Sequence record: PX418922.1
DNA length: 64,000 nucleotides
From: a phage
Direction: 5' to 3' (one strand)
Part shown: one piece after another, positions 1,872 through 58,511 of the stretch
Layout of the letters: each line of letters opens with the position of its first letter
Position numbering within the stretch: the first letter of the stretch is position 1
The notes under the pieces: model-generated
Told to the model about the DNA's origin: nothing
The model's input: the letters and a program-made list of their open reading frames with translations, nothing else
Database searches by the model: none
Position numbers and translations under genes: made by a program

Positions 1872-2276
1872 TTATTGAAGTTTAAGTGAACCACGAAGAC
1901 GTTTCTCTTGCTGATCACGAATATATTGTGGAACCTCGTGAATTGAATCATTACCGTGCCTATTTTCAACAACTAAAGAGATAACTTGATAACCAAACTC
2001 TTCAGCAAGAGTTAGATAAGGTTTAAGTTCTTTCTCTGTGGTTGAAGTGTTAGAAACAATAATCTTGTTAAGATTAGATGCCATAGCATCACGAACAATA
2101 CTCTGACACCATGCGTGTGCTTTACCTACGTTTTCTGGCTTCCAATCGTAAACACCACTTTCTGTGTAATGATATTGATCTGCCTCACAGATAGGCCAAT
2201 AACCTTCAGAAATAATTTCTGCTACTGTAGATTTACCAGCACCTGAAACGCCACGTAAAATGATAAGTTGTTTCAT
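1872..2276 (-). CDS. P-loop polynucleotide 5'-kinase-like protein
   Basis: Walker A GVSGAGKST at N-terminus, small size, adjacent to ligase and phosphoesterase as in Pnkp-type RNA repair enzymes. Confidence 0.6.
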   Translation of the reverse strand: MKQLIILRGVSGAGKSTVAEIISEGYWPICEADQYHYTESGVYDWKPENVGKAHAWCQSIVRDAMASNLNKIIVSNTSTTEKELKPYLTLAEEFGYQVISLVVENRHGNDSIHEVPQYIRDQQEKRLRGSLKLQ

Positions 2277-3209
2277 TTATCCTCCAAAGAAGTTTTCGAT
2301 TTTTTCACGTCGCTCCTGCTGATTTAAAGCAGCCCATTGAGTCTTCGTAAAATTATTTCGAATCCATTCTAACAAAGCGTAATATTCTTCGTCAACAATT
2401 TGTTTGGCATTTTTTGGATTATCCCAAATCAGATCCCACTTTTTATCTCCACCACGCATAAGAAACTTCTTAGTAAGATAGTGTGGTGATTTAATTTTTA
2501 AAAGTAAGTTGAACGGATAGTTTGTTTCACGAACTACAAATCCTTCGTGTTTACAATGTTTAGACATTTCAACAACATCTGAAAACTTAACCATTGGATG
2601 AACTTCAGGACGCTTAAATTTGGTGACAGAAGCAATTCCATCAAGAGCACCTTCAGGTAACATAAAACTTGTCCCATCAGGATTTTGAATTCTGGCACCA
2701 ATTAAGTATGCACCTGGTTCTTCTTCGACAATATGCGGATCAGAAGGATCACAGATTTCAAAAAGGAAAGTTGCTTTTGCACTCTCTGTCCATTTGATGA
2801 AATGTTCTATGTCATCACACTCTGAAATAATATGATTCTTTGCAATACTTGCAAAATCTGATTCAAGGCTTCCTGTTGTCGATACAATAAGTTGACCTTT
2901 ATATACACCTACAGAGGCCATAAAACCATTTACTTTACGAACCACATCTACAAATTCATCCGCTGGTAGATCTGTGCCATTCTCAAAACGATTAAAAATC
3001 TTAGTGAAAGGCCAAATAACAACATTGTCATCAGCGTCAACAACGATTCCGCGACATTCTAGAAGACGAGAATCAATGTTCCATAGGTTATCCCAGAAAA
3101 CTTTGTTCTTATACTTAAGAACAGATAGACCAGAATACTCTCCTTCTTTATATGTTTTCTTATGAACTAAACCTTTTTCAACTAAATCGTCGCAATTAAA
3201 TTTAGCCAC
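2277..3209 (-). CDS. RNA ligase-like nucleotidyltransferase (Rnl1-like)
   Basis: Motif I KVNGFM about 90 aa from N-terminus, EG motif HEGFVVRE, motif V LLLKIKSP. Confidence 0.55.
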   Translation of the reverse strand: MAKFNCDDLVEKGLVHKKTYKEGEYSGLSVLKYKNKVFWDNLWNIDSRLLECRGIVVDADDNVVIWPFTKIFNRFENGTDLPADEFVDVVRKVNGFMASVGVYKGQLIVSTTGSLESDFASIAKNHIISECDDIEHFIKWTESAKATFLFEICDPSDPHIVEEEPGAYLIGARIQNPDGTSFMLPEGALDGIASVTKFKRPEVHPMVKFSDVVEMSKHCKHEGFVVRETNYPFNLLLKIKSPHYLTKKFLMRGGDKKWDLIWDNPKNAKQIVDEEYYALLEWIRNNFTKTQWAALNQQERREKIENFFGG

Positions 3210-3210
3210 A

Positions 3211-3762
3211 TTACTCTCCTTTGATTATTTTGTGATGGTCTACAGTTACGATATCTCGTTTACTCATCATAGAAATTATCTCATCAAAATGTAAGATTTT
3301 TCCGTGTGCATCCCAACCCACATCTAACATTTTACCATAAGCTTCATCAGGGAAAGATCCGTGGGAATGCCCGTGTAGCATGATTGATCCACGACCTTGT
3401 TTATTCCAGGAGGCCATAGGGTAATGGCTTAAGACGAAGAACAGCTTCTGATATTTCACTTCGTCATAATACACCACTTCTCCATACTCTGCAAGCACTT
3501 CTCGGTGTTTGCTGTAATCATGGTTCCCAACACAATAAGTGATATCCCCTTGGAGGCGGGAAGCAATCTTACGGGTATCTTCTTCAGTCCCGAAACAGAA
3601 GTCACCCAAATGCCACATCTTGACACCTGGACTCGTAGCGCATTTATTCCATGCTTCGATCAGTGCTTCCGTCATGTGGTCCATATCTTCCCACGGTCGA
3701 TATTCAGGAGCAAACTCTCGTATACGTTTGTGCATAAAATGCAAATCACTTGTAATAAACAT
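3211..3762 (-). CDS. calcineurin-like metallophosphoesterase
   Basis: Signature DLHF...GD...GNHD...HGHSH metal-binding motifs. Confidence 0.7.
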   Translation of the reverse strand: MFITSDLHFMHKRIREFAPEYRPWEDMDHMTEALIEAWNKCATSPGVKMWHLGDFCFGTEEDTRKIASRLQGDITYCVGNHDYSKHREVLAEYGEVVYYDEVKYQKLFFVLSHYPMASWNKQGRGSIMLHGHSHGSFPDEAYGKMLDVGWDAHGKILHFDEIISMMSKRDIVTVDHHKIIKGE

Positions 3763-8391: not shown

Positions 8392-8463
8392 GGCCCTGTA
8401 GCTCAATGGGAGAGCTGTCGGCTCATAACCGATAGGTAGCTGGATCGAAACCAGCCAGGGCCA
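8392..8463 (+). tRNA. tRNA-Met (anticodon CAT)
   Basis: Hand-folded cloverleaf: 7-bp acceptor GGCCCTG/CAGGGCC, D-stem GCTC/GAGC, anticodon loop CTCATAA, T-arm, encoded CCA. Confidence 0.7.
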
Positions 8464-8468
8464 CCAAC

Positions 8469-8540
8469 GTCTTTATGGTGTAATGGATAGCACAGGAGTC
8501 TTCTAAACTCTTAGTCAAGGTTCGATTCCTTGTAAAGACA
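8469..8540 (+). tRNA. tRNA-Arg (anticodon TCT)
   Basis: Hand-folded cloverleaf: acceptor GTCTTTA/TAAAGAC, anticodon loop CTTCTAA, T-loop TTCGATT, CCA encoded. Confidence 0.65.
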
Positions 8541-8739
8541 CCAGAACATTTTAACATGAATTAGCTCAAGTGATTTGAACCCACTACTGATCATGGTGGC
8601 AGAGAATGAGGCAAGTATGTCAGACATTATAAACAAAGGCCACGGTTATATTAGAAGACATAAATGCTCGAAGAGCACCGCTCGTGGAGAACGGGGGTTG
8701 GTGGAGTCACCATTCATGGTAAAATGTTTTAAAAAACTA

Positions 8740-8769
8740 TTGACAACTAACATTATTTTATGTTAGATT
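8740..8769 (+). promoter_or_regulatory. sigma70-like promoter (TTGACA-N17/18-TAGAT)
   Basis: CTATTGACAA family member directly upstream of tRNA-Ser. Confidence 0.5.
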
Positions 8770-8777
8770 ATAAGTAT

Positions 8778-8865
8778 GGAAGGGCAAATCGACGTGGCGA
8801 CGAAAACGGTCTTGAAAACCGCCGAGCTTGAAAGAGCCTTGGGAGTTCGACTCTCCCTCCTTCCG
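8778..8865 (+). tRNA. tRNA-Ser (anticodon TGA), long variable arm
   Basis: Acceptor GGAAGGG/TCCTTCC, anticodon loop CTTGAAA, long extra arm, T-loop TTCGACT, CCA encoded. Confidence 0.65.
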
Positions 8866-8872
8866 CCAGATT

Positions 8873-8955
8873 GGTAGATTGGTGAAATGGTAGCCACGAC
8901 AGTTTGCTAAACTGTAGTCGGAAACGGCGTGTAGGTTCGAGTCCTACATCTACCG
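8873..8955 (+). tRNA. tRNA-Ser (anticodon GCT), long variable arm
   Basis: Acceptor GGTAGAT/ATCTACC, anticodon stem ACAGT/ACTGT with loop TTGCTAA, extra arm, CCA encoded. Confidence 0.7.
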
Positions 8956-9088
8956 CCAAGTTCTTTTTAATATAGCTTACTTTAGCAGAGTAAATCTTCG
9001 GCAAGTGGCGGTAACCACTTTACCGATAACTCATAGTTAGTGGTGTGAACACTGGCTATTTTAAAAAGAATTTAAATATTAGCATTTA

Positions 9089-9173
9089 GGTGAGTTAATT
9101 CCGTAGGGGTAGCGGGGCAGACTGTAAATCTGTTATCATTGCGATTCGGGTGGTTCGACTCCATCACTCACCA
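9089..9173 (+). tRNA. tRNA-Tyr (anticodon GTA), long variable arm
   Basis: Acceptor GGTGAGT/ACTCACC, anticodon loop CTGTAAA, extra arm hairpin, CCA encoded. Confidence 0.7.
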
Positions 9174-9182
9174 CCAAATTAA

Positions 9183-9265
9183 GATGAGTTGGCTGAATGG
9201 TTTAAGCGGCGGACTGTTAATCCGTGTTCGAAAGAACGATATAGGTTCAAATCCTATACTCATCG
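9183..9265 (+). tRNA. type II (long-arm) tRNA, anticodon loop reads CTGTTAA (GTT by position; identity uncertain)
   Basis: Acceptor GATGAGT/ACTCATC, 3-bp D-stem, variable-arm hairpin GTTC-GAAA-GAAC, T-loop TTCAAAT, CCA encoded; a GTT anticodon with a long extra arm is atypical. Confidence 0.5.
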
Positions 9266-9275
9266 CCAGAATTAT

Positions 9276-9351
9276 GGACTTGTAGAGTTAAGGTAAACCC
9301 CCAGTCGCCAAGAGGCTTCTGGAATTGCAGGTATCGAATCCTGCCGAGTCC
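9276..9351 (+). tRNA. tRNA-like element (degenerate; possible pseudo-tRNA)
   Basis: Acceptor GGACTTG/CGAGTCC and T-arm-like GCAGG-TATCGAAT-CCTGC (8-nt loop) present but no canonical anticodon arm; no CCA. Confidence 0.3.
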
Positions 9352-9358
9352 CAGCTTT

Positions 9359-9430
9359 GCTCCTATAGTATAATGGCTATTACAACGGTTTTGTAATCCG
9401 TGGATCTCTGTTCGATTCAGAGTGGGAGCA
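9359..9430 (+). tRNA. tRNA-Thr (anticodon TGT), tentative
   Basis: Acceptor GCTCCTA/TGGGAGC, T-arm CTCTG-TTCGATT-CAGAG, CCA encoded; anticodon stem has a T-T at the loop-closing pair. Confidence 0.5.
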
Positions 9431-9707
9431 CCAACACAACATTAAGAGCACTGTGATTGATCGTCGTATCCTGTGCACAAGGTCTGTTCGAAAGACAGTG
9501 TTCTTAGTATTGTGTTGATCACACAAAAAGAGTTACCTGAAACTTGACCGGAGTAGGGTTGGATGGGGCAAAAGAAGAAGCGGCTCTCCCATCGACAGCA
9601 AGAAGAATAATATTTGACTTTGGTTTTGTATTATTTTAAGTTAGCTTACCGAACGTAGGGCTAGTCACCCAACGGGATACTCGTCACTGTCCCACTCAAT
9701 AAAACTA

Positions 9708-9737
9708 TTGACAACCAATAGTAAAATGTAGTATAGT
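9708..9737 (+). promoter_or_regulatory. sigma70-like promoter (TTGACA-N18-TATAGT)
   Basis: CTATTGACAA family member upstream of tRNA at 9749. Confidence 0.5.
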
Positions 9738-9748
9738 AAAGATGTAGG

Positions 9749-9819
9749 GCGTTCTTGGTGTAGCGGTAGCATTCCGTCCTTCCAAGTCGGCGGCACGAGT
9801 TCGATCCTCGTAGAACGCT
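9749..9819 (+). tRNA. tRNA-Gly (anticodon TCC), tentative
   Basis: Acceptor GCGTTCT/AGAACGC, T-arm ACGAG-TTCGATC-CTCGT, anticodon loop CTTCCAA, CCA encoded; one mismatch in anticodon stem. Confidence 0.5.
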
Positions 9820-9920
9820 CCAAATTATTTAATAAAGGGTTGCCAGAAAACTTTCTCTTTTACTCATGGTTTTCTCCTTCTCTCACACCTCTTCTGGTTG
9901 CCCTTCATTAAATGATTTAT

Positions 9921-9993
9921 TGGTTTGTAGTGTAGTCAGGTAGCACACGACACTTTGACTGTCGTAGGTTTGGTTCAAATCCAGACAGACCAG
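9921..9993 (+). tRNA. tRNA-Gln (anticodon TTG)
   Basis: Acceptor TGGTTTG/CAGACCA, anticodon stem CGACA/TGTCG with loop CTTTGAC, T-loop TTCAAAT, CCA encoded. Confidence 0.7.
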
Positions 9994-10001
9994 CCATATA
10001 A

Positions 10002-10075
10002 CGGAATTTAGCTCAGTTTGGTAGAGCATACGCTTTGGGAGCGTAGGGTCGCAGGTTCGAATCCTGCAATTCCGA
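10002..10075 (+). tRNA. tRNA-Pro (anticodon TGG)
   Basis: C1-G72 acceptor (CGGAATT/AATTCCG) as usual for bacterial tRNA-Pro, anticodon stem TACGC/GCGTA with loop TTTGGGA, T-loop TTCGAAT, CCA encoded. Confidence 0.7.
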
Positions 10076-10084
10076 CCAATTTAA

Positions 10085-10155
10085 TGTTTCGTAGTTCAAT
10101 GGTAGAACCCACGACTGATAATCGTGAGACACAAGTTCGATTCTTGTCGAAACAA
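10085..10155 (+). tRNA. tRNA-Ile (anticodon GAT)
   Basis: Acceptor TGTTTCG/CGAAACA, anticodon stem CACGA/TCGTG with loop CTGATAA, T-arm ACAAG-TTCGATT-CTTGT, CCA encoded. Confidence 0.65.
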
Positions 10156-10160
10156 CCAGT

Positions 10161-10230
10161 TTCCCGTTAGACTTACAGGATAAGAGTTCCACAGCTTATT
10201 GTGATGCTGGTTCGAATCCAGCACGGGATA
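10161..10230 (+). tRNA. tRNA-like element, anticodon arm not resolvable
   Basis: Acceptor (1-72 mismatch) and canonical T-arm GCTGG-TTCGAAT-CCAGC present; anticodon arm could not be folded by hand; no CCA. Confidence 0.3.
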
Positions 10231-10236
10231 CCTAAT

Positions 10237-10312
10237 AGCGGGATAGAGGAGTCTGGTCGTCCTCGCCAGTTTCATATGCTGGAGATCATTGGTTCAAATC
10301 CAATTCCCGCCT
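10237..10312 (+). tRNA. tRNA with CAT anticodon (Met, initiator or Ile2-type)
   Basis: Anticodon stem CCAGT/GCTGG with loop TTCATAT, D-stem GAGG/CCTC, T-arm ATTGG-TTCAAAT-CCAAT, CCA encoded; A1-C72 mismatch at acceptor end. Confidence 0.6.
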
Positions 10313-10430
10313 CCAAATATCGCTTGCCAGCGGTATCTTTGAAGACCTTGCCTGGTTCCTTCTAAGAGGAGGGGTGCGACTCCTTAACGCACAATTATAA
10401 TAAAGCATTTCAAATTAACAGTATTTATTA

Positions 10431-47506: not shown

Positions 47507-50182
47507 ATGTTTCCAATTCCAATATTTACTATTATGACCAGCACTGGTGTCGTTCCTCTGCCAGCAGGTATTGTTAAAAAAGTAATCACTTTAGATTACC
47601 CAGATAATGCTGGGAATTCTAATAGCAGTTTAGCAATTTTGCTTAATGATGGTAGATTGTTTACTCAAGGCGCAAACCTTTTTGGTGAGATTGCAGATGG
47701 AACTCGTAGTGCACGATTCAATAATTTCCACTTGGCTTCTACTGTAGTAGCGGATGTGTTTACCGCAGATCGTTGTTTTGTTATTAAAACTAACAGTGGA
47801 GGATGGCAATATTCAGGATTGACAGCAGGATTGGTAGGATCTATAGCAGCAGGTGGTACGGACGCATGTGTAACTACTTGGACCAGCTTTCCATCTGTAA
47901 TAACAGGGACTATCTCTTTAGCTAATCTTAAAGAGGTTAAGGGAGGATATAACAACACTCTCTGGTTAATGAATAGTGGTGTTCTTTATGGATCAGGTCA
48001 AAACACAGTAGGCAGTTTAGGTGCAAGTACTACTAACGAAGTTTCTACTCCTCGTCAGATAACAAGTGCAGCAGTTGCTTTTGATGCAGGTTACAACCAA
48101 TGCTCTTATGTCAACAATGTGGGAACCTTGCGTGTTTGTGGAGCTAGTAAAGGTTTAGCAGGTAATAATAACACAACAACAGCTTTTGTCAATGCTAAGA
48201 TATCCGCTACTGAAACAGTGTATGTCAAAGATTACATCAATACAGTTTCCCAGACAATAGTTGTAGGAGATACCTCCGGTGGCACGGGTACAGTAAACTA
48301 CTTATATGTTAGGTCTAATACAGAAACAACCTACACTAAACTGGATACCTTTGCAGCAGGTTTCTCAACATGGAAGTTTCCACCAAGCCGCCACTCTTTT
48401 TTCGTTGGGATCAATAATTCCTTGTGGGCTATTGGTAAGAACTACACTGCAAACTTAGGTTTGGGGTATGATTCTGCGAGCGGAGATCCACTCCAAGTGG
48501 GAAAACCAGTTAAACCTGAAGGAGTGGGTTCTTGGGATATAAACAAGCTCACAAGCGTTCATACGCTGAATATGGATGTTACTAACCAATTAGGTTATCA
48601 AGGAACCTTTTTCGTTTATAATGGAGATATGTATTATTCCGGTATTTGGAAAGATGGGAAAGCCTCGTATCTGTTCAATAGCGGTCTAAACTATAATAAA
48701 TTCACACCAATAGCAAGCTCCGTGATTACGGGTGATATTCTGGCAACTGGCTTAACTACAGATTCTTTAGGAATTTGTATTGTAGGTGGAACTAAACAGT
48801 TGACACATTCTGTTAGCCCAGAAGGAGGTAAACTTTTCAATATTAAATACACTTCTTCTGCCCCTGCAAACATGACAATATCATCTACTGGTTTAATGAC
48901 TTTCCATGCAGAAGGTGGTTTTGATGCAGGTATGACAGCCTTAAACGCTGAAGGAACAACTTTATCAGATACCTCTGGAGGATATGCTTCAACATTGAGT
49001 GTTTACACCCCTAGCTTATCTGCGATGGATGTAGGAACAACACAAACAATGGTAGCAGAAATAACGCCAACAGGAGCAGCAAGCTTACCTGGCATGGTTG
49101 TTGAGTATTTCTCTAATGACCCTACGGTAGCAACAGTTGACCCCGTTACAGGCGTTATTACAGCGGTTGCTGATGGAGGTTGTCGTATCGGTTGTAGAGC
49201 AACTTATCAAGGTGTGGTAACTGCCGAAGATAGTTCTTATCTCACAGTGAATGCTGTGGTGATTGTGATGGATTATGATTTGACGCAAGAAACTATTCCG
49301 GCGGATGTAAAGGTCAACAGGAGTAACCGTTATGCCAGGGCTTCTGGAGATATCCTTGTACCTACAGAGAGTTCTGCTCCCGTAGCACCTTTAGAATATG
49401 TTGGTACAACTCCACAAGGTAGACGTGTTGTAGCAGCCAACCGTACACATATCTTTATCAACAATAACTTGACAACAGCTTCCCCGTGGTTGAAGACGAA
49501 CTTGACAGTCACAGCATCAACAATCAACTCTCCGGTTGGAACTACGGCTAACACTTACAAGTTAACACCTTCTACAACTTCAGGACAACATATTTTATCA
49601 GCAGTGAATACAGCTTCTGATATTACAGCAGGTAAGCACTGGGCGGCATCCGTATTCTTGAAGCCAGATGGGATCACTAAAGTGAAACTCAAATTGACTT
49701 CAGGAGATGAGATTAACGAAGGGACTTATGATCTTGTAGCTGGAACATTTACAGGTGCAGATGCAAACATAATCGATATGGGGAATGGTTGGTATCGTGT
49801 AATTCTACACAAAGTGACAGTTGCCAAACAAGCATCTATAACCTATGAGATTATAGCTTTGAATGCAAGTGGATCAGACACTTTCGCAGGAGATGGTACG
49901 GCAGGTCTTATTGCTTGGGTTCCACAGCTTGAGATGGGGGATATGACAAATCCAGTTTGGGCGGGGACACCATTTGTTTGTTCTTATGCACGAGACACTA
50001 CCAGTGCTGTTACCTTCACTATTCCTAAGAATGGACATACTGGCGTGGACATTTACCACACTGATGGTACTGTGCAACGAGAGGTCTTCACTGGTACAGC
50101 TACAACTTGGATGTTGACGTTCACCGCCGCAAGTGCGGATTGGGGATCGAAGTTCATTACAGGTTTGAAATATTACGACTAA
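47507..50182 (+). CDS. large tail fibre protein (beta-rich, Ig-like/adhesin-like)
   Basis: 891 aa, Thr/Ser/Gly/Val-rich; last gene of rightward late operon. Confidence 0.5.
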   Translation: MFPIPIFTIMTSTGVVPLPAGIVKKVITLDYPDNAGNSNSSLAILLNDGRLFTQGANLFGEIADGTRSARFNNFHLASTVVADVFTADRCFVIKTNSGGWQYSGLTAGLVGSIAAGGTDACVTTWTSFPSVITGTISLANLKEVKGGYNNTLWLMNSGVLYGSGQNTVGSLGASTTNEVSTPRQITSAAVAFDAGYNQCSYVNNVGTLRVCGASKGLAGNNNTTTAFVNAKISATETVYVKDYINTVSQTIVVGDTSGGTGTVNYLYVRSNTETTYTKLDTFAAGFSTWKFPPSRHSFFVGINNSLWAIGKNYTANLGLGYDSASGDPLQVGKPVKPEGVGSWDINKLTSVHTLNMDVTNQLGYQGTFFVYNGDMYYSGIWKDGKASYLFNSGLNYNKFTPIASSVITGDILATGLTTDSLGICIVGGTKQLTHSVSPEGGKLFNIKYTSSAPANMTISSTGLMTFHAEGGFDAGMTALNAEGTTLSDTSGGYASTLSVYTPSLSAMDVGTTQTMVAEITPTGAASLPGMVVEYFSNDPTVATVDPVTGVITAVADGGCRIGCRATYQGVVTAEDSSYLTVNAVVIVMDYDLTQETIPADVKVNRSNRYARASGDILVPTESSAPVAPLEYVGTTPQGRRVVAANRTHIFINNNLTTASPWLKTNLTVTASTINSPVGTTANTYKLTPSTTSGQHILSAVNTASDITAGKHWAASVFLKPDGITKVKLKLTSGDEINEGTYDLVAGTFTGADANIIDMGNGWYRVILHKVTVAKQASITYEIIALNASGSDTFAGDGTAGLIAWVPQLEMGDMTNPVWAGTPFVCSYARDTTSAVTFTIPKNGHTGVDIYHTDGTVQREVFTGTATTWMLTFTAASADWGSKFITGLKYYD

Positions 50183-50187
50183 TAAAA

Positions 50188-50218
50188 AAGGGAACCTTTG
50201 CGGGTTCCCTTTTCTTTT
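50188..50218. terminator. bidirectional rho-independent terminator between convergent operons
   Basis: AAGGGAACC-TTTGCG-GGTTCCCTT hairpin flanked by AATAAAAAA upstream and TTCTTTT downstream. Confidence 0.7.
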
Positions 50219-50245
50219 ATAAAAACTCTTTATAAATCAATAAGA

Positions 50246-51133
50246 TCAGAATGGAATATCATCGTCGAAGTCCATTGGAGGTTCTTCTTGATTACTTGGA
50301 GTTGGTTCTGGTTGTGGTTCAGGTTTCTTAACTTCTTTCTTCTCTTCTTTCTTAGGCTGTTCTGCGGAACCACGAATGGCAGCAGCAACTTTATCAGACA
50401 GAGCCAGAACTTTACGAGCAGAATCAATCAGATCTTCTACAGATACAGTCTTAATAGTATGGTCTTTACAAGCATTGAGGATAGCGTGACCAACAGATGC
50501 CCCAAGATCATAATCATTAATATCAACGCCACGAGATTCAGCAATTTCCGATTTCAGCGTGACAGTTGCAGATTGAACAACCCCAGCGATATCGAAAGCA
50601 TCGCCTTTAACACCATTACGAATCAGTTCCAGTGCACCATTTACTGCGTGACCAGTTTCCAGACCTACAGTATCACGTTTTTTATAGGATTGCTTAGGAG
50701 CAGCATCGTTGGAACCTTTATTGCCAGAAGATTTGTTAGACTTCTGAACACCATCGGTAGACAATACTGTAATACGAGATTTTTTAGTATTGTAGTAAGT
50801 TTTACCGCCTTTATTATCAACGCGATCAATATCAATACTTACTTCTACACCTTTTTCAATAGTGATCCAATTATCGCCTTCTTTGACTTGCAGGTTTTCA
50901 TAACCTTCTTTCAGTTCAATGTCACCAAGAGAAATCCAAACACCTTTCTCATCTGGTTTAGCACCTTTCTCTTTCAGAACAAGAGAAGCTCGGTGAGTTG
51001 AAACAATCGTTTTTCCTTCCCAATGGAAGGTTTTAGGTTCAGCGAATTTATCCAGTTTAACGTAGTCTACGATACCAGTTGCATAAGTTACGGTTTTGCC
51101 TTTACGATCAGTTTCAGTATTAATTACGGACAT
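50246..51133 (-). CDS. ssDNA-binding-like protein with E. coli SSB-type C-terminal tip
   Basis: C-terminus ...EEPPMDFDDDIPF resembles the E. coli SSB tail end (PMDFDDDIPF); Pro/Glu/Lys-rich linker precedes it; N-terminal fold not identified. Confidence 0.55.
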   Translation of the reverse strand: MSVINTETDRKGKTVTYATGIVDYVKLDKFAEPKTFHWEGKTIVSTHRASLVLKEKGAKPDEKGVWISLGDIELKEGYENLQVKEGDNWITIEKGVEVSIDIDRVDNKGGKTYYNTKKSRITVLSTDGVQKSNKSSGNKGSNDAAPKQSYKKRDTVGLETGHAVNGALELIRNGVKGDAFDIAGVVQSATVTLKSEIAESRGVDINDYDLGASVGHAILNACKDHTIKTVSVEDLIDSARKVLALSDKVAAAIRGSAEQPKKEEKKEVKKPEPQPEPTPSNQEEPPMDFDDDIPF

Positions 51134-51149
51134 TATTATCTCCTCTACA

Positions 51150-51542
51150 TTACATTAATTTTGCACAGAAAGAGCGGAGTCTTTCCATATCATCTTGCTC
51201 TAACAGGTATTTACCTTTACCTATTCCAACTCCAATTTCACCATTAGGAAAATGAACTATTTGCACTGGGAAACCTCCGAGTTTAATTGTGGCAGCTTTG
51301 CCTTCTTCGTCTATAACGTTTCGGATTGTATCTTGCAGTGAAATGAATTCTTTGTTTGTAACAGTGGTTTCAATTATTTCAGATGTTTCGACACGAGCAG
51401 TTAGCTTCTTGTTTCCACCTTGAATAACCAAAATTTGAAAATAAAAAGAGTTGTCAAGACCTACAACATTTTTCTCAACTAGTGTCAAACTGGTATAGTT
51501 TCCATAAACAGTTTCAACAGCTATCTTAGAACGTTCAGTCAT
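51150..51542 (-). CDS. hypothetical protein
   Basis: ORF. Confidence 0.4.
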   Translation of the reverse strand: MTERSKIAVETVYGNYTSLTLVEKNVVGLDNSFYFQILVIQGGNKKLTARVETSEIIETTVTNKEFISLQDTIRNVIDEEGKAATIKLGGFPVQIVHFPNGEIGVGIGKGKYLLEQDDMERLRSFCAKLM

Positions 51543-51587
51543 TGAATGCTATCCTATCATAAAATGTTTAATATTGTCAAGCTTTAA

Positions 51588-52181
51588 TTACCAAGGAATA
51601 TCATCTTCTTCCAATCTGGTATCTACTTGAGGTGGACGTGGAACCTTAACCTCTTTCACAAAACGAAGATATGGGAAACGTGTAGCAATTTTAATAACAT
51701 GTTTGGCATCTTCTCTAACATCTTTGTGCAAGAAGCAGATCCCTGTTTCCAAGGTTGTTTCAAAATCTTTAGAATAATAACAGTCCTTCCCATCAAATGC
51801 AGCCTGGCAGATGGACAGATCGAACTCATTTAGAAAGGTTGTCATTACGCTTGGTTCCATAATCATAAGGTTGCAAAGCTGACCATCACGTTCAAACTCA
51901 AAAACGTGTTTAAGACCAGTAACACCTTCATAATTGTCAGAAGCCTCTTTGTTCCCTAGTTTACGAATATTGGTTCCCATTAAAGCAGATGCAATTAATC
52001 CTTGTATTTGTTCTTCAGTCCGATGTGCAGGAAGGGATGTATAGAAATCCAGATCACGTCCAGCAATATCAAGAATACGCCAATCACGAACAGCACCGCC
52101 AGCCAAGACAGAATTAGGATCAGCGATCTTTAATATGGTAAGAATTTCTTTGGCAATATTGATTTGTTTTGATTTAGTCAT
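51588..52181 (-). CDS. Pol-beta superfamily nucleotidyltransferase (CCA-adding/poly(A) polymerase head-domain-like) with SSB-like C-terminal tip
   Basis: LAGGAVRDWRILDIAGRDLDFYT matches the GGxVRD...DxD signature of class II tRNA nucleotidyltransferases; C-terminus ends EEDDIPW. Confidence 0.5.
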   Translation of the reverse strand: MTKSKQINIAKEILTILKIADPNSVLAGGAVRDWRILDIAGRDLDFYTSLPAHRTEEQIQGLIASALMGTNIRKLGNKEASDNYEGVTGLKHVFEFERDGQLCNLMIMEPSVMTTFLNEFDLSICQAAFDGKDCYYSKDFETTLETGICFLHKDVREDAKHVIKIATRFPYLRFVKEVKVPRPPQVDTRLEEDDIPW

Positions 52182-52392
52182 TGATACGCTCCACAGTTAC
52201 TTTTACAACATCGTCCATATTAATCTCATCCCCTAAGACCTCAATAACACCTTCCTCATAAAGTCGAGCACATTCTTCCCACACTTCAGCTTCCGTCATT
52301 CCACCTGCAATCTTATTTGCAAGACCTTTAATAACATCTTCATTTTGTTCATCAACAAGAATTGAAACATTAAAGCTCACTAATTTACGCAT
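52174..52392 (-). CDS. hypothetical acidic protein
   Basis: ORF overlapping neighbour start. Confidence 0.35.
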   Translation of the reverse strand: MRKLVSFNVSILVDEQNEDVIKGLANKIAGGMTEAEVWEECARLYEEGVIEVLGDEINMDDVVKVTVERIND

Positions 52393-52569
52393 TGTTTTCT
52401 CCTTATACTTCTAAACGGAAAGTTTCTTTAGATACAAAATCGTATCCACCTTTTTCAAGCCAGTCATTGTAAACCTCATCGGCTTGAGACTCTATCATAA
52501 AATACCGAGTGGTAACTTCGTCTCCGACAATACGCACAATTTTATAGCAAATCATGATACCATTTCCCA

Positions 52570-52761
52570 TTAATCTTCCTCCAGATCAATTTCATTATAA
52601 CAATGTATGCAGAAACCATCATTGTGCATATGTTGTTCATAAGACATATCTTTACCACAAGACCAACAACGGATATCCCCATCGTCCCATTCACGTTCTT
52701 CTTCACCTTCGAATTCATCTGGTAGGTAAGGCATACCAAGACAATCTAAATCGTAATGCAT
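52570..52761 (-). CDS. small zinc-ribbon protein
   Basis: CWSCGKD...CIHCYNE; start moved to internal Met preceded by AGGAGGAGAT, avoiding overlap with the polymerase gene and the hairpin at 52777-52797. Confidence 0.45.
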   Translation of the reverse strand: MHYDLDCLGMPYLPDEFEGEEEREWDDGDIRCWSCGKDMSYEQHMHNDGFCIHCYNEIDLEED

Positions 52762-52810
52762 ATCTCCTCCTATAAAGGGGCAGAAGCCCCTTATAAAACA
52801 ATATGTTAGA

Positions 52811-55408
52811 TCAGTGACAGGACGCCCAAGAATTACCCACATCATATCCGGCAGTAAGCTGAACATTAAGATTGTAAAATTCTCCAGCCTTAGTAACAGC
52901 TAAGGCAGCAAGTTCACCTGCCCGACTATAGGCTGTAAACCATCCACCTTTAGGAGATTCATGAATGTTAGCCCAAATTTGCCCTGTCTCTTTTTCCTTA
53001 TTATGCTTCCATTCTTCGACTTTAGCAAGGCATTCTTTATCAATTTTCTTTTGTTCTTCAGGATCGTCTACTTTCTTCCAACCTAATGATTCAGGTGAAA
53101 ACCATTTAAATTCTACAAGGTTACGAGAAACTTCAAGCTGGGCTTCATCGTGATATGCAATCATTTGTTGCACGAAGTCTTTATTCTTCCAGTCATCTTT
53201 AAAGAAGTCAACACTTAGCCCTTCTTCTTCGATCATGTCGTCATAAATAACCATTGCACGTTTAGCACAGATAACCCCGCCGCTTTGGAATAGAGAGTTA
53301 AGAATCGCGTGAGCAGAACGAGTAGGAACCTTACGACCGTCAATACCCAAAACATATTGTTTACCAGTCTTAACCCAGAAATCGTTTAAACGTTCTTTAA
53401 GACGCGCCAATGGGAATGCAGCTTCCCAGAAAGCATCAAACACCAATTGACCTGTAAACTTATCGCTACCAATTGTTTTAGCAACCTTGTCGGCTTGTGC
53501 ACCATAGGTAATACCATACTTAACAGATTTAGCAGGACTACGTTCAAATTTACGTCCAATAGTTTCAGTGATACGTTTTGCCATCATTGTGTGAACATCG
53601 TTAGGTTTTTCTAACAACAGAGCGTTACAATATTCGTGTGGCTCCGGCTCGTACCGCCAACAGTAGTGTGATTCAATTTTTGCTTCCAAAGAGTCGAAGT
53701 CGTAGCCGATCTGGAAGTATTTAGGAACCTCTACACCAAACAAGTTACGCATCTCCCATCCAAACAAAGATGTGACACGAGGAATGTTAGCTACAGACCT
53801 ATGCTTCATACGAGAGGTTGCAGCATCACATGTAGCTGCTGGGGTAGGAATACGACCATCCGCCCTTACTGCGGCTAAGAAACCTTTATCGTATTCTTGA
53901 TCTTCTTCATCTTCTTCCCAATCAGCACCGCCACCTAAAATAGAGTTCCTACGATGCTTATACGTTAAGTATTCTACAATCTGTGTAGCATAAGGAAACT
54001 TCTCACCCAAAGCTTGCAGGTTAGGACAAATTTCTTTTTCCTGACCTTTGGTAAAACATGGGTTAGTCAATACTTTAAGACCGCGACCTTTACCTTTTGC
54101 TATACGCTCTTGAATCTTCCTTTCCAAGGTTTCCGGTGTGCACTCCAGATGATCACAACGATCCTGACAAAAATTAGAAGATAGAGTTTGCTCAACGTAA
54201 GCTCGAATGCCTTTCTGAAGTTCTTCCTCGCTCTTTTTAATCTTGGTGCCAGATTTAAGAGTCAAGTCTTTATCTTTATATTCAGACGGTACCCAACCTA
54301 ATCCTACAAGCCAGTTTTTAATATGGGTTGTATCGTTCAATGTTGCAGGAATGTTAGGATCACATAGAGGCTCATCTGCTGCAACTGGCAGTTTCCACTC
54401 TTTCCCCAACATAACTAACCACCAATCGCCATCCCTCTCTTCCAAATGACCATCATGTTTCTTAGCAAAATTGATCATATGGTTAGTTGGCTCTAAGTTC
54501 TTTTTAATTTGCAACTTAGGTGGAATAAAAGCTTTAAGATAACCTTTTGTTGCTGGTTTAGGTGGCAAAATAGGCTCAACGAGTAAACGAAGACGCTCCA
54601 TTTCTGCATCCAAAAAAGCAAGGTTCTCTTCTGCTTGTTTCATGTTAAAAGCAAACCCACGGTGTTCCTGGCGTGTAATAATGTCTGCTACACGTTGTTC
54701 AAGTTCAAATGGACCTTCCCATTTATCATAATCACCCCATTCTTCCATAAGGTAATTATATACGCTCGTATTGGCTTTGTTGTCATAGATACAGTAATAA
54801 AGCATATCCGCAGCAAAAGTCTTAAATCGATCTTCTTCTGGAATCTCTTTACGGAAATCTATTTTTACATCACCACCTGCTTTTCGAGAAAGTGCTGCCA
54901 AGCTATGTCCTGATTTGCCCTCAATCTTTCGATCTGGGTTTAACACTTTACTCAAAATCAAGGAGTCAATAAGTTTTACCTTATTTTTGCCCCACGTATT
55001 ATATTTAACACTGTAATCTAATCCATAAAACAGTTTTGTAGCCAACCAGTCGTAGTTGATACCGTTGTGAGCCACAGCCATTTCAACCAGATATTCAGGC
55101 TTGTCTTTAAAATAACCTTCATGATTAATAAAATCTGGGAAATCTTTTAGTTGAAAATGTGTGTAATCTTGCGCCACATACTCTTTAAGAACATATGTGT
55201 ATTTACCATCTGACTCTTCATAAGGACGCCCATCAAAGATGTATTTAGGGCCATCGTGGAAAGCTACTATTTCTCCTGTTTCATGGTTCTCTAAGACAAT
55301 ACAGTGCATTTGAAATGTGTCTTTGAGACGATAAGGACTAGCTAAATAATCAATAGTGTCATTATTCAACAATCCGTTTGCTTCAATATCCCATGTAAAC
55401 TTACTCAC
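52811..55408 (-). CDS. family A DNA polymerase with 3'-5' exonuclease domain
   Basis: Exo I WDIEANGL; motif A YDFDSLEAKI; motif B RSPAKSVKYGITYGA; motif C YHDEAQLEV. Confidence 0.9.
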   Translation of the reverse strand: MSKFTWDIEANGLLNNDTIDYLASPYRLKDTFQMHCIVLENHETGEIVAFHDGPKYIFDGRPYEESDGKYTYVLKEYVAQDYTHFQLKDFPDFINHEGYFKDKPEYLVEMAVAHNGINYDWLATKLFYGLDYSVKYNTWGKNKVKLIDSLILSKVLNPDRKIEGKSGHSLAALSRKAGGDVKIDFRKEIPEEDRFKTFAADMLYYCIYDNKANTSVYNYLMEEWGDYDKWEGPFELEQRVADIITRQEHRGFAFNMKQAEENLAFLDAEMERLRLLVEPILPPKPATKGYLKAFIPPKLQIKKNLEPTNHMINFAKKHDGHLEERDGDWWLVMLGKEWKLPVAADEPLCDPNIPATLNDTTHIKNWLVGLGWVPSEYKDKDLTLKSGTKIKKSEEELQKGIRAYVEQTLSSNFCQDRCDHLECTPETLERKIQERIAKGKGRGLKVLTNPCFTKGQEKEICPNLQALGEKFPYATQIVEYLTYKHRRNSILGGGADWEEDEEDQEYDKGFLAAVRADGRIPTPAATCDAATSRMKHRSVANIPRVTSLFGWEMRNLFGVEVPKYFQIGYDFDSLEAKIESHYCWRYEPEPHEYCNALLLEKPNDVHTMMAKRITETIGRKFERSPAKSVKYGITYGAQADKVAKTIGSDKFTGQLVFDAFWEAAFPLARLKERLNDFWVKTGKQYVLGIDGRKVPTRSAHAILNSLFQSGGVICAKRAMVIYDDMIEEEGLSVDFFKDDWKNKDFVQQMIAYHDEAQLEVSRNLVEFKWFSPESLGWKKVDDPEEQKKIDKECLAKVEEWKHNKEKETGQIWANIHESPKGGWFTAYSRAGELAALAVTKAGEFYNLNVQLTAGYDVGNSWASCH

Positions 55409-56202
55409 TATTCCTCCTTTCTAATGTTCTCCAGAACCCACTGAAGTTCTTTTAAACTTAAACTTCTTACTCCCGCAGTTTTACTAGCTTCAGCTTTAAG
55501 TAACGGGTAAGCCTCAATGATACGCGTTTTAAGATCAGAAGTCAAGGCTTTTAAAAAGTAGGTAGATGCTTCAGATAAAGAATCTTCTTCTGATAACACT
55601 TTACCTGCACTTGCTCCCGCTCTCCTAACGGCTATATCGTAGTCTTTACTGTTACCTAATACGAATAGTCGATTCTCTCCTAAAACAACGGGAGAACGCT
55701 TCTCGTTGCGTTTAATCCATATCTGGAATACACAAGGAACATCCCAAGGTTCTCCATGAAGAATAAAAGATCCTTTTGGACATTCTTCTTCGTAAAGAAG
55801 ATGCATGTGGGGATTTAGTTTGTGTGCAAAAAAGATTTTTTGAAATGTGCGAGGCAAGATAAAACAAATACCACCTTCGTTATCCAACATTTCAGCACAA
55901 TGGTTAAAGAACTTAATGGCAAGACTAGCATTTTTTCCAAACGGAGGATTACCGACAAAAGCAGTTACACTACCAACAGACTCAACAGATTGAGCTAAAA
56001 AATCTGCCTCAATACAATCTTCAAACTTAGGGTCAATATCAAAAGAAGTTATGTTTTTAAAACAAGAAGAGAAAGCCCCTTCTCCCGCAGATGGTTCTAC
56101 GTAGTTAGCTTCCTCTCCAAAAATTTCTTTGATCTTATCACATAAGAACCCCGCATAAGCGGGGTTAGTGTAATATTGATCAAGTGTGTTCAACTTGCTC
56201 AA
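55408..56202 (-). CDS. DNA methyltransferase (amino-methyltransferase, gamma-type motif order)
   Basis: DQYYTNP then SAM motif I VEPSAGEGAF then catalytic GNPPFG; small, no obvious separate target-recognition domain. Confidence 0.7.
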   Translation of the reverse strand: MSKLNTLDQYYTNPAYAGFLCDKIKEIFGEEANYVEPSAGEGAFSSCFKNITSFDIDPKFEDCIEADFLAQSVESVGSVTAFVGNPPFGKNASLAIKFFNHCAEMLDNEGGICFILPRTFQKIFFAHKLNPHMHLLYEEECPKGSFILHGEPWDVPCVFQIWIKRNEKRSPVVLGENRLFVLGNSKDYDIAVRRAGASAGKVLSEEDSLSEASTYFLKALTSDLKTRIIEAYPLLKAEASKTAGVRSLSLKELQWVLENIRKEE

Positions 56203-56735: not shown

Positions 56736-58511
56736 TTAATAATTGCTATCCGTAGGCAAATTAGCAGGATTGTTGAAATACTGCTCTTTGTCATGCAGGG
56801 TTGCAGTTCTAATGTCATAGTAAAACTGCCCTGCCGGACCAGTTTCTGAGAACTCACGGTTTTTTAGGATAAAGCAATGAGTCGTATTGCGTTCTACAGG
56901 GTCTTCAGCGGCTTTATCTCGTTCCAAAGCCAAGGTAATACCAGCACCTTTAGCCAAGAAACTACTACCCATTGCATCGTCCTCTGTTAAGTGTTCATTG
57001 CCACCATTGGCCGATTTCTTAACGTGTGAGATGACAATAATAGTTATAGCATACTCTTTCATGATGCGCTTCAACCATGTTGCTAACTCTTCCTGGGCTT
57101 GAACATCCATACCAGAAAGCAAATCAGAATAAGGGTCGATAACAAGAATTGTTACTCCAAAATAGATGATCATCTCCAAAACTTTTTCTTTGATAGACTC
57201 CACATCTGCTCCACGATCATCACACACATAAAAACGTGGTGATCCATCTTCTCTTTCGTAAAAATCTAGGATTTTTTCTTTATTCTCTTCCAAGATTTGA
57301 AATTTCTCTTCCGGTGTTTTCCTGTGTAGAGGAATATGCAGGAACGAGGACAACAGGTTACGAGAATATTTCTTATAAGTTGCTTCCAAGGACAGAATAC
57401 CTAGGGTATGTTCTGGGTGCGCAACAATAATATGTTTGGTGATCTCGTTCACCATCAAAGTTTTACCGATACTGGTCTTTGCCAGGATAACTGTAATCTC
57501 TTCCTCTACTAAACCACCACCCAGCATATTTGCAGCAACACGCATAAAAGGAGGCAAGGTAATCATCTTGGATTCCAAGCATTCTAATGCGGCTTCATAC
57601 AAGACATTAGAAGCATAAACACCTGCTGGGGTGTATAGACGAGCACTCCAAAAAGCTTTTACGAAATCTTTTGCACGACCTTCTTCCAGATACTGATTGG
57701 CATCCTTAAGATCCATCTGCATACGATAGACTTTGTTACGAGGCAGCACCTTAACAATATTTTCAAATGCCTCATTACCTGCTTTGTCATTATCCATGCA
57801 AACAATAATCTTCTTAAATTTTTCAAAGAAAGGATATTGTGCCTGAACTTGTTTATACATACTGGTTTCACCAGTTGTGCCACTAACTACTGCTGGAAGT
57901 TCATACTTGTTGTCCAAGTTTTCAGATAGCATTTGATAAGCTGCCAGAGCATCGTGTTCACCACCTGTAATTACCACAGTATGAGAACGGTCTGCAAAAC
58001 GAATTTGTCCAAAAAGATCTACATCTTTACCTACTTGACCAATAGGTTTACTGAAATCTTTAGGATGAATACGACGCTTAAAACCAACCAATTCTTTACC
58101 GATAGTAGTTGGATATAAACAACTTTCTACTACCATCTGATCCCCTTCCTGACGGTATTCATAACGAACACCATAGAAAGATGAAACTTTTTCTTTAATG
58201 CCTCGATAACCACGTGGGTTGGTTGATGTTTCTTGAACAATTTTACGATGAATCTGTTTATTAAATTCCGAACCCACAATCTCCTCCTCTTCTAAAACTT
58301 CACCATTTTCTCGTAACCATTCTACGCTAGGAATAGTGTATTCACACGCAAAGCACTTAGCACCTTTATGCTCTCCATTAGAATCTAATCCATAAACCAT
58401 CAGGTTATTACGAGAGCGATCCTTGCCATTTTTCATGCAGCGCGGACAACCTGTATGCCCTTCCTTGCTAAGATCAACATCAAATCCATATTTAGTTATA
58501 ATGTGCGACAC
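56736..58511 (-). CDS. bifunctional DNA primase / hexameric helicase (T7 gp4-like)
   Basis: N-terminal Cys4 zinc ribbon (CPRCMKNG...CFACEY), TOPRIM-like VVITGGEHDAL, Walker A AKTSIGKT in C-terminal helicase half. Confidence 0.85.
   Translation of the reverse strand: MSHIITKYGFDVDLSKEGHTGCPRCMKNGKDRSRNNLMVYGLDSNGEHKGAKCFACEYTIPSVEWLRENGEVLEEEEIVGSEFNKQIHRKIVQETSTNPRGYRGIKEKVSSFYGVRYEYRQEGDQMVVESCLYPTTIGKELVGFKRRIHPKDFSKPIGQVGKDVDLFGQIRFADRSHTVVITGGEHDALAAYQMLSENLDNKYELPAVVSGTTGETSMYKQVQAQYPFFEKFKKIIVCMDNDKAGNEAFENIVKVLPRNKVYRMQMDLKDANQYLEEGRAKDFVKAFWSARLYTPAGVYASNVLYEAALECLESKMITLPPFMRVAANMLGGGLVEEEITVILAKTSIGKTLMVNEITKHIIVAHPEHTLGILSLEATYKKYSRNLLSSFLHIPLHRKTPEEKFQILEENKEKILDFYEREDGSPRFYVCDDRGADVESIKEKVLEMIIYFGVTILVIDPYSDLLSGMDVQAQEELATWLKRIMKEYAITIIVISHVKKSANGGNEHLTEDDAMGSSFLAKGAGITLALERDKAAEDPVERNTTHCFILKNREFSETGPAGQFYYDIRTATLHDKEQYFNNPANLPTDSNY

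Follow-up and report, generated by a model that had tools for sequence, protein, structure and literature searches.

The nucleotidyltransferase (NTase) encoded at positions 51588..52181 (minus strand, stop codon included) of phage sequence record PX418922.1 was confirmed, by the profile of its family and by its predicted structure, to be an enzyme of the polymerase beta (Pol-beta) superfamily with a genuine class II head, the type found in CCA-adding enzymes and poly(A) polymerases. The stretch analysed comprises 64,000 nucleotides and is called the window here. It belongs to a Phapecoctavirus (Stephanstirmvirinae), an Escherichia coli myophage with a genome of ~150 kb. The NTase has only 197 amino acids (aa), ends in a tip like that of SSB, the protein that binds single-stranded DNA, and lies among replication genes. 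Our best explanation, a tentative one, is that it is a minimal terminal NTase, derived from class II enzymes, that belongs to T7-type replication modules and is guided by its tip to proteins that recognise SSB tails on single-stranded DNA (ssDNA). It more likely acts at replicating DNA than in tRNA repair.

The list of open reading frames (ORFs) and the translation give an ATG start and a TAA stop at 51588-51590; the plus strand of 51588-52181 has stops throughout and no open frame. The gene is real but no new discovery, since both the gene and a loose annotation were already known. Its product is 100% identical to gp183 of phage phAPEC8 (AFU62754.1), which has carried the GenBank label ‘putative tRNA nucleotidyl transferase / poly(A) polymerase’ since 2012. 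This label, attached to hundreds of phage genomes via one motif, is probably misleading. New here are the anatomy of a head plus neck stub with altered specificity motifs, the apparent restriction of the family to phages, the quantified link to replication modules, and the SSB-type tip common to the NTase and the neighbouring SSB-like protein.

Evidence for a class II head

Residues 26-48 of the NTase read LAGGAVRDWRILDIAGRDLDFYT. Within them, motif A (residues 26-47, LAGGAVRDWRILDIAGRDLDFY; 52041..52106, minus strand) was aligned to CCA-adding enzymes and E. coli Cca and holds the glycine pair and the catalytic residues D43 and D45. Residues 28-45 (GGAVRDWRILDIAGRDLD) carry the class II order of GGxVRD followed by DxD. 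Searches with the single sequence were of little use. For the Pfam head domain PolyA_pol (PF01743), which has a cut-off of 23 bits, the score was 13.9 (E=0.07) with residues 26-65 alone covered, and relatives likewise scored below the cut-off, with 13-21.5 bits. In the PDB, only noise was found (PYL1 receptors at E about 0.3), and in NCBIfam the NTase had no match. A family profile was therefore needed. When a profile built from 56 family members was searched against PDB sequences, the top matches were solely CCA-adding, poly(A) and A-adding enzymes, the best being 6ibp (E=0.0025), over the N-terminal helix and motif A. Taken alone, the sequence of the NTase makes a thin case; together with its relatives, the case is solid.

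Structure prediction and a fold search, which had been proposed earlier as the check, agree with the profile. An AlphaFold2 model computed from the family alignment reached a mean predicted local distance difference test (pLDDT) of 86.6 and a predicted template modelling score of 0.81. In Foldseek searches against the PDB, the best 32 matches were all class II enzymes, in agreement with a class II head-domain fold and with no unrelated fold among them. The score of E. coli poly(A) polymerase I (PAP I) was barely above those of CCA-adding and A-adding enzymes. The matched enzymes are 344-517 aa long, compared to 197 aa for the NTase, which falls well short of every class II enzyme characterised. 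The structured part of the NTase is wholly a Pol-beta-type fold, and no oligonucleotide/oligosaccharide-binding (OB) fold of the ssDNA-binding kind was found in it. The class II head assigned in the earlier note was thus borne out by the family profile, by Foldseek and by the invariant GG and DxD residues.

Compared to E. coli Cca, the CCA-adding enzyme of B. stearothermophilus (1miv), E. coli PAP I (3aql) and the A-adding enzyme of A. aeolicus (4wby), the NTase shares the N-terminal helix, the head fold and motif A (GGAVRD-x9-DLD). A stand-alone head is also known outside phages: the ‘CCA-adding enzyme head domain’ of Streptococcus pneumoniae (NP_344798.1, PDB 2la3, 191 aa) is cellular and only 13% identical to the NTase, and it was not recovered by the family profile in the PDB sequence search.

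Altered specificity motifs and missing domains

Conservation was counted over 187 representatives of the family, whose overall identity is 20-35%. G28, G29, D43 and D45 do not vary at all, and at least 97% of the representatives retain R32, W34 and K164 (K164 in 183). F169 and P170 are near-invariant, and position 168 is Lys or Arg. E95, a candidate third carboxylate, is Glu or Asp in 70%. This pattern suggests a family that is catalytically active and selects nucleotides in a way unlike CCA enzymes.

In class II enzymes, the arginines of the RRD sequence in motif B read the ribose 2′-OH, EDxxR in motif D is the amino-acid template for CTP and ATP, and the body and tail domains bind and measure the tRNA or RNA primer. 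The counterparts of motifs B and D were assigned from a permissive pairwise alignment to E. coli Cca and from alignment lengths, without an inspected superposition; in hhalign, only motif A of the family was aligned with E. coli Cca. In the pairwise alignment, LNEFDLSICQ of the NTase falls on LKRRDLTINA of E. coli Cca (motif B, which reads DLTINA or DFTINA in class II enzymes). The segment FDLSICQA (residues 120-127; 51801..51824, minus strand), in which the family conserves F120, S123, I124 and C125, may therefore be the structural equivalent of motif B. No conserved Arg is found at positions 118-119 of the family alignment, where RRD would be expected.

Residues 157-170 (EDAKHVIKIATRFP; 51672..51713, minus strand) resemble motif D and would form the residual neck, with a helix at residues 160-168 in the model. 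In this region, EDAKHVIKIATRF of the NTase aligns with the class II motif D EDPLRVLRVARF, and REDAKHVIKIATRF aligns on GEDPLRVLRVARF of E. coli Cca (motif D, first neck helix). The EDxxR sequence is not retained: the NTase reads EDAKH where E. coli Cca reads EDPLR, so that H161 stands where the templating Arg would be. Of the 187 representatives, 99 have His and 80 have Tyr at position 161, and the ED pair is not conserved across the family. With these CCA-specificity residues replaced, the choice of nucleotide would differ from that of CCA enzymes.

According to the model, the structured part stops at about residue 176 and the remainder is disordered, so there is no body and no tail domain. 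The NTase would accordingly consist of a complete head and a neck stub. The earlier note had both neck and body missing; the body is indeed absent, as is the tail domain, whereas a stub of the neck appears to be kept in the alignment to Cca, where DLSICQ stands for DFTINA and an ED..H..K...RF helix for EDxxR..R..RF. In sum, the NTase is half the size of class II enzymes or less, lacks their body and tail domains and their RRD arginines, has His (Tyr in much of the family) for the templating Arg and carries an essentially invariant Trp34 directly after RD. Its Pfam score below the gathering threshold, its acidic core, its disordered SSB-type tip and its site in a replication operon also set it apart from them.

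An apparently phage-restricted family

A HMMER scan of 1.84 billion representative sequences gave 1044 clusters (50% identity) at E<=1e-3 and 333 at E<=1e-10. Nearly all members are 170-220 aa long. Two PHROG families, both labelled ‘nucleotidyltransferase’, match the NTase: phrog_10174 (E=7.9e-63, residues 1-128) and phrog_1614 (E=1.8e-11, residues 4-184). Relatives in these two families have the same size and the same place beside polymerase, exonuclease or helicase genes. The family signature GGA[VP]RDW ... DLDFY ... [HY]xxK[IM]xx[KR]FP is wholly present in the NTase, with G28, G29, R32, W34, D43, D45, H161, K164, R168, F169 and P170 as its signature residues.

In BFVD, structurally similar small proteins were found in many T7/phiKMV-like podophages, among them Ralstonia phage P-PSG-11, Caulobacter phage Cd1, Dickeya phage Ninurta, Aeromonas phage phiAS7 and Pectobacterium phage PP2. 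Further relatives are encoded by Pseudomonas phages LKD16 and phiNV3, Providencia phage PS3 and Vibrio phages including ICP1. The LKD16 protein, a ‘nucleotidyltransferase’, has also been named among the minimal phage NTases and is functionally uncharacterised. In prokaryotes, the signature peptide, a narrow pattern, occurred in only 3 contigs of metagenome-assembled genomes (MAGs) when 185,579 species were covered with one genome each. The family thus looks phage-restricted. One of the three, a contig of 43.5 kb filed under ‘MAG: Proteobacteria bacterium’ (JAEZZU010000064.1, locus L094), carries an NTase copy with 98% identity; almost certainly, it stems from a Phapecoctavirus and was placed in a bacterial MAG by a binning error.

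Two further observations concern the extent of the family. The precomputed Pfam entry PF26128.2, carried by 17 of 58 relatives (P0009, P0015, P0016 and P0028 among them), may mean that a curated family for these relatives already exists. The homologue in ICP1_2005_A (ORF223, 137-139 aa; locus L006, 4956-5375) ends with ...VCMAW right after the head; it may be a copy in decay or may naturally consist of the head only. The N-terminal extensions of ten longer members had no Pfam match, and the fusions gave no functional clue.

Association with T7-type replication genes

In the window, the NTase gene belongs to a minus-strand block with the order primase-helicase, Dam methylase, family A DNA polymerase (PolA), three small ORFs, NTase, gp182 and SSB-like gp181. 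The replication-operon setting that had been read from the sequence therefore stands, and the NTase gene sits within a replication and nucleotide-metabolism module, between PolA and the SSB-like gene. The block is headed by a gp4-type primase-helicase (56736..58511, minus strand) with Toprim and DnaB_C domains (Pfam Toprim_2, E=3.6e-9; DnaB_C, E=2.3e-15), the counterpart of which is labelled ‘putative primase/helicase’ in phAPEC8. The T7-type polymerase (52811..55408, minus strand) includes a 3′-5′ exonuclease region and was identified by Pfam DNA_pol_A (E=1.4e-13) and phrog_17 (E=2.7e-111). Phages SKA64 and phAPEC8 are 98.8-99.0% identical to window bases 50000-55500. The order of polymerase, NTase, gp182 homologue and SSB-like gene is also kept in phi92, whose NTase is 37% identical.

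The association was quantified in 80 IMG/VR loci that encode relatives. ORFs were called, the six genes on each side of the NTase were clustered, and the identities of neighbours were confirmed by Pfam; clustering at 70% identity gave 47 NTase lineages. Within six genes on either side, PolA occurs in 21 of the 47 lineages and a gp4-type primase-helicase likewise in 21, with either of them present in 29. Even under a generous null rate of 0.2 per lineage, a count of 21 out of 47 has a binomial p of about 1e-4. A 5′-3′ exonuclease was found in 9 and AP2/HNH homing endonucleases in 13 of the lineages. The latter are mobile elements that are common around polymerase genes. The family travels with T7-type replication modules, that is, with family A polymerase, gp4-type primase-helicase and 5′-3′ exonuclease.

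The same company was seen in Acinetobacter phage Fri1 (Autographiviridae), where the 187-aa ORF31, a ‘putative tRNA nucleotidyltransferase’ (phrog_1614, E=1.4e-42), lies between a 5′-3′ exonuclease and endonuclease VII. No tRNA gene was found in the complete 41.8-kb Fri1 genome. In Fri1-like phages, the NTase has been assigned to the replication and repair cluster (PMC5537680). Some other relatives lie among genes of nucleotide metabolism: their neighbours include ribonucleotide reductase (RNR), glutaredoxin and ThyX, and those of the ICP1 relative are DNA ligase, phosphoribosyl pyrophosphate (PRPP) synthetase and NadV.

The SSB-type tail and the SSB-like neighbour

The C-terminus of the NTase (51591..51647, minus strand) consists of a linker (residues 179-192) and the tip DDIPW (residues 193-197, 51591-51605), both of which are predicted to be disordered: pLDDT is about 60 for residues 181-190 and falls below 50 (46) for residues 192-197. 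The protein ends with ...RLEEDDIPW and so has the make-up of a docking tip, with an acidic run and an Ile/Val-Pro-aromatic end after a disordered linker. In homologues down to 58% identity, the tip DDIPW is kept with one exception (DDSFPW), and the linker varies in length and sequence.

SSB, T7 gp2.5 and the T7 helicase (gp4) all dock on partners via acidic tails with an aromatic end. The tip DFDDDIPF of E. coli SSB and the tails of T7 gp2.5 and gp4 show the same disordered linker, acidic run and [I/V]-P-aromatic end as the NTase. The NTase tip differs in that it sits on an enzyme that is not an SSB and ends in Trp instead of Phe, and docking is predicted for it. The SSB C-terminal sequence DDDIPF is described in one account as a general docking peptide (PMC5872125), and the acidic tail of T7 gp2.5 contacts polymerase and helicase (PMC10359462).

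The tail is specific. In the window, an acidic run with [I/V]P[F/W] after it closes only two ORFs, the NTase and the SSB-like one at 50246-51133, and the SSB-like tail noticed earlier is real in this sense. In bases 1-100,000 of SKA64, ~86 kb of which lie outside the window, no other ORF ends with DD[IV]P[FW]. The one strong acidic-aromatic end in this part of SKA64, the tail ...DDEELDF of the RNR small subunit, was judged unrelated, and other matches there were weak, short ORFs. A census of the 80 loci also covered their 1029 ORFs with a length of 80 aa or more, 15 of which have the ending [ILVMF]P[FWY]: 9 SSB-like proteins (gp181 family and the 223-248-aa phrog_862 family), 4 NTases, 1 DnaB-type primase-helicase and 1 unknown protein of 131 aa. 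Since hardly any proteins other than SSBs and a helicase share this tip, the enzyme is linked to the interaction hub of SSB and replisome, with which it would dock.

Proteins of phrog_862 adjoin NTases in four loci (L033, L039, L046 and L086) and end in DIPW, DVPW or DTPW. The DnaB-type primase-helicase ORF (IMG/VR locus L082, 3062-3904) ends in DDRVPF. SSB-type tips therefore appear to be spread over several replication proteins, as in T7.

Similar tips are found on distant NTases (P0018 ...SNDFPW, P0062 ...PDDIPW, P0161 ...SNDIPW, P0199 ...DDGIPF and P0149 ...KPIPF), and looser acidic-aromatic ends occur as well (EEFEF, DDDF, WDEEF). DDIPW itself is limited to the Phapecoctavirus lineage and scattered others; Fri1 ORF31, for example, ends with ENEIFGIY. 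Judging by these sequences, the tail has been gained repeatedly in the family.

The second carrier of the tip in the window is the SSB-like protein that corresponds to phAPEC8 gp181 (295 aa; 50246..51133, minus strand), two genes downstream of the NTase. It ends with the same 12 residues as E. coli SSB, EPPMDFDDDIPF, and its matches to SSBs in the PDB, NCBIfam and PHROG cover the tail only. For the body, no Pfam or PDB sequence match was found, and a single-sequence AlphaFold model reached a pLDDT of 37.7. The position after NTase and gp182 is conserved in phi92 and 5 IMG/VR lineages. The protein looks like a non-canonical ssDNA-binding protein with a copied host SSB docking peptide. In its phi92 counterpart gp156 (locus L007, 7026-7973), DFDDDIPF is followed by 15 more residues, APIGLQYGRNFLHCF, which makes the tip internal, and in IMG/VR locus L013 the counterpart of phi92 gp156 is split into ORFs of 270 aa and 55 aa. 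A genuine variant with a masked tip could explain these anomalies, as could a sequencing error or a frameshift.

Possible function of the NTase

We propose the following mechanism. The NTase would be a free-standing class II core, catalytically competent as judged by its conserved active site. Its DDIPW tip would tether it to whichever protein reads SSB tails, which could be the phage polymerase or helicase or a protein of the host SSB interactome. Tethering would bring the NTase to SSB-coated ssDNA at forks or recombination intermediates, where it may transfer nucleotides without a template to the free 3′-OH of DNA or of an RNA primer. Its choice of nucleotide would be unlike that of CCA enzymes, given that both the RRD ribose sensor and the templating Arg are replaced. 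A DNA-related role had been hinted at from the tail before and is the alternative that the genomic context backs. If the NTase acts at forks or on SSB partners, it would represent a new activity for a well-studied fold and a new accessory of a model replisome type, and it would be an example of tail-swapping that addresses enzymes to ssDNA.

Several points weigh against this proposal. To our knowledge, the class II enzymes characterised so far all work on 3′ ends of RNA and not of DNA. With an isoelectric point of 5.6 (about 6.0 as the family median), the core of the NTase is mildly acidic, which is unusual in enzymes that hold nucleic acid unaided. The equivalence of residues 157-170 with motif D derives from pairwise alignment and lengths, without an inspected superposition, and binding of a tip that ends in Trp to an SSB-tail pocket is only putative. 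Most family members lack the tail, and the nearest out-group, phi92 gp158, ends with EEFKI; the tail is therefore a lineage add-on and not the core of the function. T7-like middle-gene regions also hold anti-host genes, so the neighbourhood alone is no proof of a role in replication. Finally, our literature search found no biochemical, genetic or functional study of any family member, and a HIDEN-SEQ preprint on essentiality did not cover these phages.

Among the other explanations, counter-defence or host manipulation survives best, and we regard it as unlikely. Here, the NTase would nucleotidylylate proteins, with the tip as bait for ExoI, RecQ, PriA or RecG, or would make a small nucleotide signal. 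The anti-host genes of T7-like middle regions fit such a role. So do the acidic core, the head-only ICP1 copy and the patchy distribution of a phage-restricted family with variable tails and N-terminal add-ons, as seen in arms-race genes. There is also a precedent, as MNT-like phage NTases are reported to make cyclic dinucleotides that block TIR-STING (bioRxiv 10.1101/2022.06.09.495361). Both these enzymes (Ho et al., bioRxiv 2022.06.09.495361) and the NTase are small phage Pol-beta proteins with an intact DxD. However, the anti-STING motif GS-x-AY[GAN]T-x4-SDxD with a downstream NP-x-h2[DE] is absent from the NTase, which reads GGA[VP]RDW-x8-DLDFY, with 15 residues from the glycines to DxD compared to 12 in MNT-like NTases, and its nearest structures are class II enzymes. 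Membership in the same family was rejected for this difference in motif. A MenT or AbiEii (DUF1814-type) toxin was dismissed as well, since its structural score was lower and neither an antitoxin nor a defence context was found. PADLOC gave no match for the NTase, and direct support for any target of this kind is lacking.

Less probable still is a pair of more far-reaching proposals: a replisome accessory that acts as terminal transferase on 3′ ends at forks or genome ends, or a tip-baited nucleotidylylation that disarms proteins of the host SSB interactome. Either would give the CCA/PAP lineage its first function that is linked to DNA replication or directed at proteins, with SSB tails reused as address labels for enzymes.

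Repair of tRNA 3′ ends was the first function considered in the earlier note, and we give it a low probability. In this case, the NTase would restore C, C or A on trimmed or attacked tRNAs of phage or host and complement an RNA heal-and-seal triad and the tRNA cluster. The nearest solved structures, which are CCA-adding, A-adding and poly(A) enzymes, and the class II signature in motif A agree with this idea. The RNA-repair set reported for the window was located at 1872-3762 (minus strand) and comprises a P-loop kinase (AAA_33; 1872-2276), an Rnl1-type RNA ligase (2277-3209) and a metallophosphoesterase (3211-3762). An ATP-dependent DNA ligase (21-1148) adjoins it. The triad co-occurs with the NTase in most Stephanstirmvirinae; in 113 records, the triad query was matched over 80% of its length or more. 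As for tRNA genes, ARAGORN found 10 in the window, at 8392-10315, and not about 14 as estimated before, compared to 11 annotated ones, one of which is marked pseudo. In phAPEC8, a tRNA-Tyr is annotated between tRNA-Ser and tRNA-Asn; at the corresponding window positions 8958-9183 (plus strand), ARAGORN reports none.

Against tRNA repair stand the lack of the tRNA-binding and tRNA-measuring domains in a protein of 197 aa, where class II enzymes have 344-517 aa, the missing RRD arginines, and His or Tyr in place of the templating Arg of EDxxR. CCA is encoded in all 10 tRNA genes of the window, and the E. coli host has its own Cca. Heal-and-seal repair of anticodon loops, as by T4 Pnkp and Rnl1, needs no CCA addition. 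The triad lies 48 kb from the NTase gene in another transcription unit and is absent from phAPEC8, whose NTase is identical. Relatives occur in replication modules, including that of Fri1 without any tRNA gene. Of the two roles considered at the outset, restoration of tRNA ends is thus the weaker one.

Generic tailing of RNA 3′ ends ranks just below tRNA repair, with slight probability. A minimal poly(A) or poly(N) polymerase would then act on host or phage transcripts or on primers, and the purpose could be a decay tag, the feeding of nucleotides into phage DNA synthesis or the timing of gene expression. If an enzyme has no domains that bind tRNA, the simplest acceptor is an RNA 3′ end of no particular kind, and the NTase gene is co-expressed with genes of nucleotide and DNA metabolism. 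On the other hand, the structural score of PAP I is only marginally above those of CCA- and A-adding enzymes, the basic C-terminal region with which PAP I binds RNA has no counterpart in the acidic core, and the SSB-type tip points to ssDNA-bound complexes and not to mRNA. The host, moreover, already has PAP I. Should the NTase prove to be a plain RNA-tailing or CCA enzyme, it would be the smallest working class II core and useful for enzyme engineering.

An inactive remnant, i.e. a degraded CCA/PAP head that serves as scaffold or as a tail-bearing competitor blocking SSB-tail pockets, would fit the degenerate classical motifs B and D, the sub-threshold Pfam score and the truncated ICP1 copy, but is very improbable in view of GG and DxD, invariant across 187 diverged representatives, and of R32, W34, K164, F169 and P170, near-invariant at 20-35% identity as in a maintained active site.

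Neighbouring genes and expression signals

Directly upstream of the NTase lies an ORF of 72 aa (52174..52392, minus strand; phrog_25475), the stop codon of which overlaps the NTase start codon. This overlap suggests translational coupling. A GGAG sequence is found 8 nt upstream of the NTase ATG.

The next gene after the NTase encodes gp182 (130 aa; 51150..51542, minus strand), which matches phrog_16560 (E=1.1e-76) and has no Pfam match. It occupies the position directly after the NTase in 9 of 9 loci from 5 lineages, with phi92 gp157 as a homologue; the same arrangement is seen throughout Phapecoctavirus, Justusliebigvirus and related IMG/VR lineages. The protein may be a partner subunit, either of the NTase or of the SSB-like protein. 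Between the stop of the NTase and the start of gp182, a gap of 45 nt contains a sigma-70-like site (51551-51580, minus strand) with TTGACA, an 18-nt spacer, TAGGAT and an upstream TG, and this site may provide gp182 and the SSB-like gene with a promoter of their own. In the region as a whole, promoter-like sites were no commoner than in shuffled sequence.

A small ORF (52570-52866, minus strand) overlaps the end of the polymerase gene and has 98 aa in the ORF list and 63 aa in phAPEC8. Its product shows a C-x2-C ... C-x2-C spacing that is suggestive of a zinc ribbon.

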